Source: Halorutilales archaeon Cl-col2-1 | GTDB taxonomy: Archaea > Halobacteriota > Halobacteria > Halobacteriales > Afararchaeaceae | Assembly: GCA_041891055.1 (NCBI GenBank) | Contig: CP169074.1 | Location: 1,583,863-1,615,862 of the forward strand | Length of the DNA: 32,000 bases | Direction: 5' to 3' | In this document: piece after piece, positions 27,659 through 32,000 of the stretch | How positions within the stretch are numbered: the stretch's first letter is position 1 | How the letters are laid out: each line of letters opens with the position of its first letter | Program-made: the position numbers and the translations under genes | The notes under the pieces: model-generated | What the model saw: only the letters and a program-made list of their open reading frames with translations | Databases searched by the model: none | What the model was told of the DNA's origin: nothing

Positions 27659-28816
27659 CTACGTCGCGTCAGCCTCGGCTTCTGACTCCATCCCCGCGCT
27701 CACGCTCACCAGGAGACTAGACGCCGCGGCTACGAGGCTCACTCCCGATAGGTAGACGAACATCCCCTGTACACCGACGGCGTCGAAGAGAGTCCCCGCG
27801 AAGACCTGTCCGACGCTCGCTCCGAGTCCGAAGACCGACGCCCAGAGGAGTGTCTGTCCGGTCGACTGGAGCGTCTCGGGAGACAGCCTGTCGGCGAGGT
27901 TTACCGCGGCGAGGTAGAACGACGCGAAGCTGAACCCCGAGAGAATCTGTGCGAGAAGCACGGCGGGAACTGCGTCGGTGAAGCCGTAGACTGCGTACTT
28001 CGCGGCGTAGGCGAGAGCACCTATCACGAGGAAGTACCTGTAGGCGAGACCGAACCGGAGAGCGTAGACGAAGACTCCCGCCTCTACGACGGTGGTTATC
28101 AGCCACGAGACCCCCGTTAAGAAGTCGCCCGCGCCTATCGCTCTCATGTAGACGGAGAAGAAGCTGTTTCCCGAGAGGAGTACGACGCCTATCAGGAAAG
28201 AGGTCAGAAGGAGTGCGGCGAAGTCGGTCTTTCTCACGAGACGCAGAGCATCTGAACTTACATCCGCGAGACGGCTTCCGTCGTTCGCTGGGAGACCCTT
28301 TCCGACTACGACAAGAAGAGCCATGCCGACGAAGTAGACGTAGAAGATCACCGACGAGCCGAGACGTGGTATGACGCCTCCGAGTATCAGACTCCCGACT
28401 CCGAACGCCACGCTTCCGTACGCCCTGACCTGTCCGTATTCGAGACCCGAGTCGAGAACTGACGAGTCGGCTATCGGGACTATCGGCGCGCGGAAGAAGG
28501 CGTAGAAAGCCGTGCCGACGCTTATAACGACGAACGCGTTCGGCAGAGAGTCGGCGAGGGGATAGACTAGGACGAACGCCCCCGTCATAGCCGAAGCCAC
28601 CATCAGAATCTCCCTTCTCGCGCCCTTCCAGTCGGCGATTATTCCCCAGAGAGGCTGTGAAACTAAGCCGACTATCGGCGGAAGAGCACCTATTACCCCC
28701 ATCTCGAACCCCGTGAGACCCGTCTCCTCTAGAAAGACGTTCCGGAAGGTAGCAAACCCGCTAAACGAGACGAAGTAGACGAAGTAGAACATCTTGAAAC
28801 GTGTCGAGTCTCTCAT
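27659..28816 (-). CDS. MFS-type transporter (12-TM-like), substrate unknown
   Basis: 385-aa hydrophobic ORF with two six-helix halves and WGIIADWKGARR-type loop motifs. An alternative start lies at 28792. Confidence 0.7.
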   Translation of the reverse strand: MRDSTRFKMFYFVYFVSFSGFATFRNVFLEETGLTGFEMGVIGALPPIVGLVSQPLWGIIADWKGARREILMVASAMTGAFVLVYPLADSLPNAFVVISVGTAFYAFFRAPIVPIADSSVLDSGLEYGQVRAYGSVAFGVGSLILGGVIPRLGSSVIFYVYFVGMALLVVVGKGLPANDGSRLADVSSDALRLVRKTDFAALLLTSFLIGVVLLSGNSFFSVYMRAIGAGDFLTGVSWLITTVVEAGVFVYALRFGLAYRYFLVIGALAYAAKYAVYGFTDAVPAVLLAQILSGFSFASFYLAAVNLADRLSPETLQSTGQTLLWASVFGLGASVGQVFAGTLFDAVGVQGMFVYLSGVSLVAAASSLLVSVSAGMESEAEADAT

Positions 28817-28856
28817 GTGGGTTTTATTTATGAGGTGGCTTCTGCCACAAAAATGC

Positions 28857-28862
28857 TTTATG
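28857..28862 (+). promoter_or_regulatory. Candidate TATA box (TTTATG) for the downstream membrane-protein gene
   Basis: It ends 24 nt before the ATG at 28887. This supports a near-leaderless transcript and the shorter start. Confidence 0.35.
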
Positions 28863-28886
28863 ACTCCTTCTTATATACTGAGGACG

Positions 28887-29984
28887 ATGTCCTGGTACGC
28901 CTTATCCAACCTCGATGACGCCCTTGACGCCGCGGAGGAGTTCCTACTGCCGTTCGACCTCAGGAAGTGGCTCAAGCTCGCGCTCGTAGCCTTCTTCGTC
29001 GGAGGTGGAGGCGGCTTCTCGACACCCAACACGTCGAACATACCCTCCGAAGGCACCTCGCCCGGTGTGGGAACGGGCGGCGGTCTTCCTACGGGAGAGT
29101 TCGCCGACTTAACCCCGATAATAATAGTGGTTGTCGCGCTTATACTCGGGATTGTACTCTTCTTCGGTGTCATAGGCGGAGTGATGGAGTTCGTCTTCTA
29201 CGACTCGGTCGTGAGGCGAGAGGTCAGGCTCAAGGAGTACTTCTCCGACCGTCTCGGCAAGGGTCTCCGTCTCTTCGGCTTCCGTTTCGGTCTCTCGCTG
29301 ATCTTCCTGCTTCCGTTCATAGCCGTAATCGCGTCTTTCTTCTTAGTGGGAGCCGTCGGACTCGCGGGGATATTCCTCCTCATACCTTTCTTCCTCGTCG
29401 GCTCTCTCGTGACGGGAGTGATACGGATACTCCTACGTGACGCCGTCGTCCCCGTGATGATAGCCGACGACGTCGGCGTGATACAGGGATGGCGGAACAT
29501 CTGGTCCACTCTCAAGTCGGAGTGGAAGCAGTACGGCGTCTACGTCGTAGCGAGATGGCTCCTCAGCCTGGGTCTCGGAATAGGGGTGGCTATAATCTTC
29601 CTACTCGCCCTCGCGGTCATACTAATACCCGTCGGGCTACTCGTCCTGCCTGTCTTCCTCCTCGGACTCGATCTCGGGGGGATTGCCCTTGTTATACTCG
29701 TCCCCGTCGGACTACTCGCCTTCCTTGCGTCCCTCGTCGCCTACGGTCTTATACGTGTCCCCGTCGAGACCTACCTGCGTTACTACGCTCTACTCGTCTT
29801 AGGCGACGCCAACCAAGAGTACGACCTGATACCCGATATGAGACACGAAGACGGAGAAGGAGACGGTGGTGACGACGTCGACGGAGACGGCGACAGTAAC
29901 GACGGTGGCGACGCCGATAGCCAGGAGAATGAAGACGATTACGACGAAGACACCGGTACGGGAGTGACCTCCTCCCCGTCGTAA
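28887..29984 (+). CDS. Uncharacterised polytopic membrane protein with a Gly-rich loop and an Asp/Gly-rich acidic C-terminal tail
   Basis: Same frame as track ORF 28794..29984. The MSWYALSNLDDALDAAEEFLLPF start is preferred because the first 31 codons overlap the MFS start and promoter region. It has multiple TM helices. The tail is HEDGEGDGGDDVDGDGDSNDGGDADSQENEDDYDED. Confidence 0.7.
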   Translation: MSWYALSNLDDALDAAEEFLLPFDLRKWLKLALVAFFVGGGGGFSTPNTSNIPSEGTSPGVGTGGGLPTGEFADLTPIIIVVVALILGIVLFFGVIGGVMEFVFYDSVVRREVRLKEYFSDRLGKGLRLFGFRFGLSLIFLLPFIAVIASFFLVGAVGLAGIFLLIPFFLVGSLVTGVIRILLRDAVVPVMIADDVGVIQGWRNIWSTLKSEWKQYGVYVVARWLLSLGLGIGVAIIFLLALAVILIPVGLLVLPVFLLGLDLGGIALVILVPVGLLAFLASLVAYGLIRVPVETYLRYYALLVLGDANQEYDLIPDMRHEDGEGDGGDDVDGDGDSNDGGDADSQENEDDYDEDTGTGVTSSPS

Positions 29985-30038
29985 ACGACGGGGCTTCCCG
30001 AACCGCACCGCAGCGTTGGGATATTTGCCGGTCTACGG

Positions 30039-31289
30039 TCAGATCTGTTCTTGTGGGGCTACTCTCCCCGTCGATGTGTCGAACAGGCGAACCGATGGCT
30101 GGGCCAGACAGCCGTTACTCCTATCCACAGAGGGATTCGGAGTTACCGTCTTTCGCATATTCTCAGCCGCATTACAGTCACTATTCGCAACCAGTTCACA
30201 CTCATCGCAGACGTACAACCCACGTTCAACACGGTTCGAATCGGCTTTCATGCCACACTCACAGCACGTTATCGACGTAGCCAGTTCGTACTCATCGACC
30301 CGCTCAACCTCAATCCCACGTTCTTCAGCTTTGTACTCGATGTGACTGAGCAGAGTTTCAAACGCCCAGTCATGGAGGCGCTTGTTGCCGTGCCTGCCCC
30401 AGTCTTCATCCTCGCGGATGCTTTTCGGATGGCCAACTGCTATCGTGCCAACATCACGGGCAGCACACTGCTCAACAATGTCTTTCGAGAGAGCGTGCAG
30501 GAAATGCTCTTGTCGCCGGGATTTCTTGCGGCGTGCCCATTCAGCATGGTTGCTGGGGCCGTTCTCACCTTCCGTGTCGTACTCTTCCTGCCGGAAGTAG
30601 TGTGCGTCTTCTTTCAATGTGTTGCCCGGATACAACAGCGTGTGGTCACCGACAGAGACAGCCGCCGTATTGCAGATACCGAGGTCAACACCTGCCGTCT
30701 TTTCACCAGCCGAGTCCTCTGCATCAATGCTGACTTTGCAGACGAAGTGCAGTTCCCACTGCTCGCCGTTCCAGACGATGCGGATCTGCTGTACGTCTTC
30801 TACATTGGTGAGGGATACGTCCGAGCCGGTGTCATATTCGCAGAGAACAAAGTCGGCCCACCCGTCTTTCAGGTTCTTGCCTTTCGACAGTCGAACCTGC
30901 TGGTGTTTCGTATCGAGTTTGAAGCCGTCTTCTTTGAACGTGACCGTGCTACGTGGTCGTTCATCGCCGTCTTTGCGGTAGCCCGGTGGGTTAGCGTCTG
31001 GATTGTCTTGTTCGAACCACGACTGGAAAGCGCCAGCCAATTCTTCGACGATTGCCTGACTTGACTGCGAGTTCAAATCTTTCCAGCACTGTTGGTTCTT
31101 CATGTAGGACTTGAGCGGTCCCTCGTCCGGAATTTCTCCGGTGTGATCCCAGATGCGGCCAGCGATCCACCGAGCAACGTTCCAGATTTTGCTGCCGGAA
31201 CGACTGAGTGAATCGAGGTCACGCACGACACCCTCACGGTCGTTGGTGAGTGTTGCCGTAATGGTGCGTGTCGTGACCAGATTCACCAT
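30039..31289 (-). CDS. tnpB: TnpB (IS200/IS605-family OrfB, IS1341-type; candidate RNA-guided endonuclease)
   Basis: 416 aa counted from MVNLVTTRT. It has RuvC-I GVDLGICNTAAV (D202), a zinc ribbon CCEC...CDEC and RuvC-III NSDCNAAENM (D371). The block WGRHGNKRLHDWAFETLLSHIEYKAEERGIEVERVDE is typical of haloarchaeal TnpB. The track's upstream 28 codons look non-coding. Confidence 0.9.
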   Translation of the reverse strand: MVNLVTTRTITATLTNDREGVVRDLDSLSRSGSKIWNVARWIAGRIWDHTGEIPDEGPLKSYMKNQQCWKDLNSQSSQAIVEELAGAFQSWFEQDNPDANPPGYRKDGDERPRSTVTFKEDGFKLDTKHQQVRLSKGKNLKDGWADFVLCEYDTGSDVSLTNVEDVQQIRIVWNGEQWELHFVCKVSIDAEDSAGEKTAGVDLGICNTAAVSVGDHTLLYPGNTLKEDAHYFRQEEYDTEGENGPSNHAEWARRKKSRRQEHFLHALSKDIVEQCAARDVGTIAVGHPKSIREDEDWGRHGNKRLHDWAFETLLSHIEYKAEERGIEVERVDEYELATSITCCECGMKADSNRVERGLYVCDECELVANSDCNAAENMRKTVTPNPSVDRSNGCLAQPSVRLFDTSTGRVAPQEQI

Positions 31290-31400
31290 ACATAGACTAT
31301 GACAGTAGAGTGAGTTAATGGCTGTGACTTGGCGTGGAATATCCAGCCAGTAGAAACAGTGTCGGAATCTCACCGAAGTTGACGCGATCCACTCCCGTCC

Positions 31401-31539
31401 CGAGAACTTACGTTCTCGTGTGCACGCGAATCTTCCGATTCGCGAACGTCCTCAGAAATCGAAGATTTCTGATGTGCGAACGAGAGCTTGCTCTCGTTAA
31501 CGCCCTGTTCGGTTCTCGGTTCCGACTAAGCGTCGGAAC
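31401..31539. other. Array of five different perfect stem-loops (7-9 bp stems, 2-5 nt loops)
   Basis: The five stem-loops, in stem-loop-stem form:
- H1, 31401-31418: CGAGAAC-TTAC-GTTCTCG
- H2, 31425-31444: CGCGAATC-TTCC-GATTCGCG
- H3, 31452-31472: TCAGAAATC-GAA-GATTTCTGA
- H4, 31479-31498: AACGAGAGC-TT-GCTCTCGTT
- H5, 31519-31539: GTTCCGAC-TAAGC-GTCGGAAC. Confidence 0.85.
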
Positions 31540-31594
31540 GCTCGTCCCTCACGGAAAGGGCGGGATTCTCTCGCTGTGTCAAGATAGACGTCGA

Positions 31595-32000
31595 CTAGCC
31601 CACGAATCTCGGGTTGTTCGAGAGTAGCCGCGGCGTGTAGAGGCTCTTTCTCGGCATCTCTCCGATCTTCTCGTCTATCTCGTCTCTGAGTTCCTCGACG
31701 GACATCTCCGTTTCGTCGTCTCCCCTGACGCGGAACTCGATCTCTTCGCCCTCGATCTCTCTGTCTCCGACTACTGCGACGTAAGGTACCCAGTCCTGTT
31801 CGGCGGTTCTTATCCTCTTTCCGACGCTCTCGTCCCTGTCGTCTATGTCGACACGTACCCCGTCGAGTTCGTCGGCGAGGCTCTCACAGTACTCGGTGTG
31901 TTCCTCGCCCACGGGTATGAAACGCACCTGTGTCGGCGAGAGCCAGACGGGCATACGTGGGGTTTCGAGTCCGTCGGCGTTTTCGAGTATGGCACCGAAG
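31595..32000 (-). CDS. thrS: Threonyl-tRNA synthetase, C-terminal (anticodon-binding) part; the gene continues beyond the window end
   Basis: The frame is open to 32000 (FGAILENADGLETPRMPVWLSPTQVRFIPV...). The pattern ERF.G.L.E....P.WLAP.QV, then D.R.E..GKRIR......PY..VVGD.E, matches ThrRS. Confidence 0.8.
   Translation of the reverse strand, partial: FGAILENADGLETPRMPVWLSPTQVRFIPVGEEHTEYCESLADELDGVRVDIDDRDESVGKRIRTAEQDWVPYVAVVGDREIEGEEIEFRVRGDDETEMSVEELRDEIDEKIGEMPRKSLYTPRLLSNNPRFVG

Follow-up and report, generated by a model that had tools for sequence, protein, structure and literature searches.

The window considered here, the 32,000-nt stretch at positions 1583863-1615862 of contig C1 of its 2.06-Mb haloarchaeal source genome (G000 below), has a tnpB gene near one end, lying between two convergent host 3' ends as the first-pass annotation had described: those of a gene for a DUF7544 membrane protein and of a gene for a threonyl-tRNA synthetase-like protein, thrS (Table 1). 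The full thrS ORF is 617 aa long, with 97% identity to its counterpart in G001, the one other genome of the genus in the comparison. No second ORF with a family match was found among the ORFs and Pfam matches between 29963 and 31582, so that tnpB stands there without a tnpA, and the sole Y1_Tnp gene of G000, at C1:979038-979397, is about 635 kb away, in agreement with the earlier remark that the gene has no tnpA partner. The label "solo" is apt in that sense, but it does not make the gene unusual, as G000 contains 28 TnpB-like matches, including 26 full-length ORFs. At the other end of the window, an Rfam L4-Archaeoglobi ribosomal-protein leader is found at 2336-2429 on the minus strand (68.9 bits, well above the gathering score), here in a haloarchaeal setting.

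Table 1. Features at the tnpB locus, in window coordinates.
Feature	Position	Strand	Remarks
DUF7544 membrane-protein gene	28794..29984	+	Pfam DUF7544, E = 9e-93
Predicted guide part of omega-RNA, TCCCGTACCGGTGTCTTCGT	29944..29963	-	Flank beyond right end; first T is element or host
Predicted omega-RNA (sotRNA) scaffold	29964..30148	-	Overlaps last 110 nt of tnpB including stop, then 75 nt to right end
Right-end hairpin CCCCGTCG-TTTA-CGACGGGG, "RE-like tetraloop"	29974..29993	-	Compensatory changes at three pairs; motif described in PMC4615843
tnpB CDS	30039..31289	-	Codons: D202 30684-30686, G286 30432-30434, E333 30291-30293, D371 30177-30179
Zinc-finger cysteines of TnpB	between 30198 and 30266	-	C342, C345, C361, C364
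Left end, inner part, and tnpB 5' region	31290..31397	-	Conserved blocks GTGAATCGCG and GGATATTC, from alignment
Nested 105-nt insertion of four short hairpins	31398..31502	no strand	Window copy only; absent from G001 and G005 copies
Left end, outer part	31503..31582	-	TTGACACAGCGAGAG..., inner hairpin GTTCCGAC/GTCGGAAC, 5' arm of outer stem CCCGCCC; aligned with G001 and G005 copies
Host target motif CTATC, likely TAM	31583..31587	-	Directly 5' of element left end
Threonyl-tRNA synthetase-like gene (thrS), 3' end	31595..32000	-	HGTP_anticodon domain; stop at 31595

The tnpB ORF runs from an ATG through 416 codons to its stop with no internal stop. Using Pfam, both OrfB_IS605 (PF01385, 58 bits) and Cas12f1-like_TNB (PF07282, 60 bits) were detected above their cut-offs, and the NCBIfam model guided_TnpB (NF040570) matches residues 23-380 at 170.8 bits, with a cut-off of 100. 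The closest solved structures by sequence are Cas12f and TnpB. An AlphaFold2 model built from 20 close homologues is mediocre (pLDDT 62, pTM 0.47), and Foldseek searches with it identify the Cas12f/TnpB fold class only, with low TM scores. As judged from its sequence, the gene is thus confirmed as a real, intact TnpB of the RNA-guided nuclease family. The first-pass annotation had read it as a full-length TnpB, without frameshifts or stops, that keeps RuvC-I, the zinc ribbon and RuvC-III; the open frame and all of the corresponding residues are indeed present, and the HMM search that it had proposed bears out the identity. A longer frame, initiated at a GTG and extending up to 31373, was considered and rejected, because the homologues begin with MVNLVTT and the DNA upstream is conserved as the non-coding left end.

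Across 20 homologues of the window protein, D202 (in GVDLG), D371 (in NSDCNAAEN) and the four cysteines of the C4 zinc finger between RuvC-II and RuvC-III -- C342, C345, C361 and C364 -- are invariant. The canonical RuvC-II Glu, which the first-pass annotation had left out of its list, is missing: that of Cas12f (in IQMEDL) aligns with Gly286 (in IAVGHP), a position occupied by Gly or Ser throughout the clade, and both Gly286 and Glu333 are conserved in the 20 homologues. Among the 26 full-length TnpB proteins of G000 the two positions covary completely: all eight whose canonical site holds Gly or Ser carry Glu at position 333, while the 18 that keep the canonical Glu have Pro, Ala or Gly there. 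In the AlphaFold2 model (pLDDT 62), E333 sits at the end of strand beta-5. Clades with Gly for the RuvC-II Glu have been described in which an alternative Glu compensates (RuvX: Glu on beta-5); they are conserved, as mobile as others and predicted to be active, and archaea-specific RIIr branches, RIIr-6 and RIIr-8, are listed among them (PMC10691335). The RuvC-II Glu has thus probably moved from strand beta-4, where Gly286 now stands, to the end of beta-5 as Glu333, giving a site that is rearranged and probably active; nuclease activity by way of E333 in particular appears reasonably likely. The view of Glu333 as an active-site residue rests on the covariation and on the published description, and the covariation within one genome, between the canonical Glu and a Glu on the next strand, in turn backs the proposal, already in print, that RuvC sites can be rearranged and yet active.

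The gene is only part of the mobile unit. The first-pass annotation had placed the insertion at 30039-31289, which is correct as far as an inserted gene goes, but the unit that moved extends from 29963/4 to 31582. The syntenic empty site that it had suggested looking for in relatives is present and clean in G001, where both flanks are joined without a gap between positions 64766 and 64767 of contig C1; identity to G001 is 92% over window 28800-29962 and 96% over 31583-32000. Read in the orientation of tnpB, with a slash at the junctions, the filled site of G000 is ...GTCTATC / TTGACACAGCG ... GGAGGAGGTCAC(T) / CCCGTACCGG... and the empty site of G001 is ...GTCTATC / CCCGTACCGG..., so the insertion comprises window 29963-31582, or 1,620 bp. 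It lies 3' of a fixed target, with no target-site duplication (empty ...CTATC/CCCGT..., filled ...CTATC/TTGAC...GTCAC(T)/CCCGT...). The motif CTATC, found at the window element's own left junction and retained in the G001 empty site, also stands directly before TTGA at 16 of 16 other left-end junctions, from G001, G005 (a genome of another family) and named haloarchaea, with the bases further out varying. At the other end, conservation among 15 aligned copies stops sharply after GGAGGA(G/T)GTCAC; the right end is GGAGGAGGTCAC in every copy, and the bases beyond it are unrelated from copy to copy. The T at 29963 is element DNA by the empty site and flank by the multi-copy boundary, and the right edge is accordingly given as 29963/4. 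The comparison of copies that had been proposed for defining the ends and the TAM thus gave both ends and a likely TAM. Instead of terminal inverted repeats there are subterminal hairpins: the nested stems of the left end and the 8-bp hairpin of the right end beat shuffled sequences with z from -2.2 to -3.3, the left-end DNA folds of uninterrupted copies giving z = -3.3 and -2.7.

Comparison of the G001 empty-site frame with that of G000 places the element within the last five codons of DUF7544 rather than in an intergenic spacer. The protein ends ...DTGTGVTSSPS-stop in G000 and ...DTGTGIDVD-stop in G001, where the TAG stop overlaps that of thrS; the last six codons and the stop of the G000 gene (about 29964-29984) come from the right end of the element, and the new TAA stop lies, on the plus strand, in the loop of the right-end hairpin. 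For annotation, the exact boundaries, the target motif and the guide RNA are hereby fixed, and the C-terminus of DUF7544 in G000 is to be regarded as an insertion artefact.

Ends of this kind occur elsewhere in G000 as well. A 245-bp stretch at C3:7068-7312 has the left end (cctatc/TTGATACAGCGAGAGAATCC) and right end (GGGGAGGATGTCAT) of the window element's family with no tnpB between them, and looks like a PATE/MITE-like deletion derivative. The elements at C1:914854-916941 and C1:~935700-937562 encode TnpB proteins only 25-32% identical to that of the window and have the same left end; the first has a CTATC target and the right end GGAGGATGTCAC, while the second has CTGTC at the target position and no recognised right end. 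One set of transposon ends seems to serve distant TnpB lineages alike.

The 3' part of the element matches the Rfam family sot0042 (RF02656), which models the sense-overlapping transcript (sotRNA) of an IS1341-type tnpB from Halobacterium, at 29973-30148 on the minus strand, over the whole of the model (1-174 of 174), with 86.5 bits and E = 3e-22, a score 1.5 bits short of the gathering score of 88. A consensus fold of 15 copies (RNAalifold) has 48 pairs, of which nine show compensatory changes (three of the nine in the right-end hairpin), while the folding energy of the single sequence is unexceptional (z = -0.84, not significant); the predicted omega-RNA is thus supported by the covariance model and by covariation, not by folding energy. 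In Halobacterium the sotRNAs have a mean length of 218 nt; they begin some 1,100 nt into the gene, and their ends lie on average 74 nt past the stop (PMC4615843). Apart from its own flank, the 20-nt predicted guide finds no near-match beside CTATC anywhere in G000, a pattern to be expected if the element is selfish but not if it is a regulator. We put the probability at about 0.9 that this is an ordinary member of the IS1341 group of the IS200/IS605 family, some 1,620 bp long, with the anatomy given here and comprising only tnpB and an omega-RNA of sot0042 type.

In G000 the element is single-copy, its nearest paralogue being only 60% identical. A full copy is present at another locus in G001, 91% identical in the CDS and 90% over the whole element, at a site that is uninterrupted in G000 (C1:379544), and G005 has several copies. 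These differing loci in the three genomes indicate mobility indirectly; that a Y1 TnpA does the mobilising is what we infer. (In two of the G005 copies, L040 and L042, the start codon reads ATA instead of ATG, and translation may begin at the GTG that follows.) TnpB proteins 86-92% identical to the window's are found in Natronomonas, Halovenus, Halorientalis, Haloarcula halophila, Halobacterium hubeiense, Salinarchaeum and a Halodesulfurarchaeum MAG. Over the same kind of distance between families DUF7544 is only 30-44% identical, which indicates horizontal spread and documents, as far as sequence comparison can, the exchange of one TnpB element family among families of haloarchaea. The dN/dS comparison among copies that had been proposed earlier gave 0.10-0.19 for the window copy against those of G001 and G005, and 0.08-0.13 among other copies.

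The first-pass annotation had gone on to suggest a candidate for an active or domesticated nuclease. Activity is plausible, though the rearranged RuvC-II site and the interrupted left end of the window copy temper it. That TnpB might have been taken over by the host, as an RNA-guided regulator or defence protein, would fit an intact ORF under purifying selection, the missing canonical RuvC-II Glu and the conserved core genes around. The selection, however, spans mobile copies in unrelated hosts and is therefore selection on the element; the Glu has been relocated, not lost, with D202 and D371 kept; and the guide, with its own flank as the only match, lacks a second target in the genome. What lies at the locus, moreover, is a complete element, with target motif, both ends and guide-RNA scaffold, that is present in one congener and absent at the same site from the other, and multi-copy in other genomes. 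Domestication is accordingly very improbable, and an exapted or nuclease-dead TnpB, such as a TldR-like regulator, was rejected on the same grounds of intact ends, a polymorphic locus, retained or relocated acidic residues and no second guide target. The window element is better seen as an ordinary selfish insertion sequence. Its haloarchaeal type, the type of its guide RNA and that of its rearranged active site are all familiar ones.

The codon usage of tnpB differs from that of the host: ATA makes up 2 of 17 Ile codons (0.12, genome 0.59), AAA 15 of 22 Lys codons (in the genome AAG is 0.75) and AGA/AGG 3 of 28 Arg codons (genome 0.45), so that the hand count of the first-pass annotation was right in its numbers. 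Its conclusion of recent horizontal acquisition holds, in that the usage is unlike the host's and the G001 site is empty, with the qualification that the bias is common to all of the full-length tnpB genes. On a crude ORF set the window tnpB is at the 8th percentile of the codon-usage score, and all 26 full-length tnpB genes of G000 fall in the lowest 8-20%, with flanking host genes at 58-95%; the atypical usage is therefore a property of the element class in this genome and not a mark of the window copy. The host usage itself is unusual for a haloarchaeon of 55% G+C (ATA 59% of Ile, AGA plus AGG 45% of Arg, AAG 75% of Lys), and it is absent from the mobile-element genes of G000 and from the 116-kb contig C2 (G+C 49.6%).

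As to age, the orthologous locus in G001 is empty, where the same gene with host-like codons would have spoken for an ancient resident, and this supports, on the sequence comparison, an element that was inserted after the split from G001 or has been polymorphic since. IS200/IS605 elements excise precisely, and the empty site therefore gives no polarity between insertion in G000 and precise excision from G001. The element could thus be older than it looks, having stood at this locus before G000 and G001 diverged and since been lost from the latter. In keeping with this, the 96% identity between a truncated copy in G001 and the window copy is close to that of the host flanks (92-96%). Set against an old resident are a codon usage not host-adapted at all (ATA 0.12 vs 0.59) and the G001 allele of DUF7544, with its intact, plausible C-terminus and overlapping stops; the DUF7544-thrS synteny, for its part, is confined to this genus, the adjacency being absent in the other families searched, so that there is no outgroup. 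We regard so old an insertion as improbable. Because the truncated copy is about as similar as host DNA, the genus probably had this lineage of the element beforehand, with movement to new sites since.

The window copy also bears a later insertion. In uninterrupted copies a 9-bp outer stem (TCCCGCCCT/AGGGCGGGA) surrounds the inner hairpin of the left end; in the window the nested 105 nt (boundaries ambiguous by up to 5 nt, CGGGA being repeated) fall inside the 3' arm of this stem, which they split as AGGG/CGGGA, so that the mobility of this copy may be impaired. The hairpin modules that make up the insertion are dispersed in G000 and G001. Similar mini-elements, with stems of 7-9 bp and loops of 3-5 nt, are nested in the outer stem of the left end in at least three different TnpB elements of G000 (window 31398-31502, C1:914931-915296 and C1:979420-979640), one of these left ends belonging to the only TnpA-bearing IS605 element of the genome; both G000 and G001 also have single modules scattered over dozens of sites. 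The left-end loop of IS200/IS605 elements appears to be a preferred place for such mini-elements. In locus L053 (G001:C16:4603-8895), at about 1700-1760, a 45-nt hairpin module, which shows as an insertion in the alignment, lies inside the 3' coding/omega-RNA region of a related tnpB copy.

With its outer stem split, the window copy might be a stranded relic that transposed in and is now immobile, its intact tnpB reflecting how recent the event was rather than any current function. It is single-copy in G000, and the one TnpA of the genome sits in an IS605-type element with a different right end. The left-end core of that element is, however, homologous to that of the window element (CAGCG.GAG..CCCGCCCTT ... 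GGGCGGG.GTGAA.CGCGTCA), and likewise packed with mini-elements of that kind; the inner hairpin and both termini of the window copy are intact, the outer stem may not be needed, and TnpB and the omega-RNA region are undamaged. A relic of this kind seems unlikely, if well worth keeping in mind, and continued mobility of the window copy is itself somewhat doubtful. A more far-reaching reading would take the window TnpB to represent a haloarchaeal lineage with its RuvC-II Glu relocated to Glu333, a lineage that might be an RNA-guided nuclease active by nature, adapted to salt and using CTATC as its TAM. The present copy would then perhaps be at a first step of immobilisation, its nuclease still working and its guide directed at what was once its own empty site; the chances of this are slim.

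For the ordinary insertion sequence that we favour, the working would be as follows. By analogy with its family, the element would travel as single-stranded DNA by means of a Y1 transposase (TnpA) acting in trans, and would insert just 3' of CTATC without duplicating the target. The omega-RNA would consist of the last ~110 nt of tnpB and the 75 nt after its stop, followed by flank serving as a guide of perhaps 16-20 nt. With this RNA, TnpB -- expected to be an active nuclease with Glu333 in place of the RuvC-II Glu -- would cut the CTATC-flanked empty site that matches the guide, and after excision the element would be restored from the sister copy. In the present case it went into the last five codons of DUF7544, against the thrS stop, turning the tail IDVD-stop into VTSSPS-stop, and a 105-nt hairpin mini-element has since split the left-end stem.

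Nothing here alters existing knowledge of TnpB biology, and each part of the element has a counterpart among known systems. The protein resembles the RIIr-5-type TnpB clades of Altae-Tran et al. 2023 (PMC10691335), which also have Gly for the RuvC-II Glu; RIIr-type clades share with it an alternative conserved Glu on the next strand or loop, a C4 zinc finger that is kept and mobile elements, the likeness being one of shared features and not of position on the published tree. ISDra2 of Deinococcus radiodurans, whose TnpB-omega-RNA complex has been solved (PDB 8EXA, 8H1J), has the protein family and fold class in common with the window TnpB, though the sequence similarity between the two proteins is weak (E = 3e-5). 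In both elements a target motif of 5 nt precedes the left end and doubles as TAM -- TTGAT in ISDra2, CTATC as the likely TAM here -- and the guide, a predicted one here, is taken from the flank past the right end; ISDra2 differs in carrying tnpA and the canonical RuvC-II Glu, while the window element lacks tnpA and has its Glu relocated. The 3' hairpin and GGAGGAGGUCA terminus of the predicted window RNA are nearly identical to the model consensus of the HgcC family of RNAs (RF00062), though the match is weak overall (28 bits, gathering score 50) and only the two model ends align. In element and RNA, the likeness is to the IS1341-type elements with sotRNAs of Halobacterium salinarum NRC-1 (VNG0042G / VNG_sot0042; RF02656; PMC4615843). 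The window element differs from them in its host, in an Rfam score 1.5 bits below gathering and in the mini-element nested in its left end; like them it is TnpB-only, and its predicted RNA likewise begins ~1,140 nt into tnpB and extends to 75 nt beyond the stop codon, with an RE-like tetraloop hairpin and a match to the full length of the covariance model.
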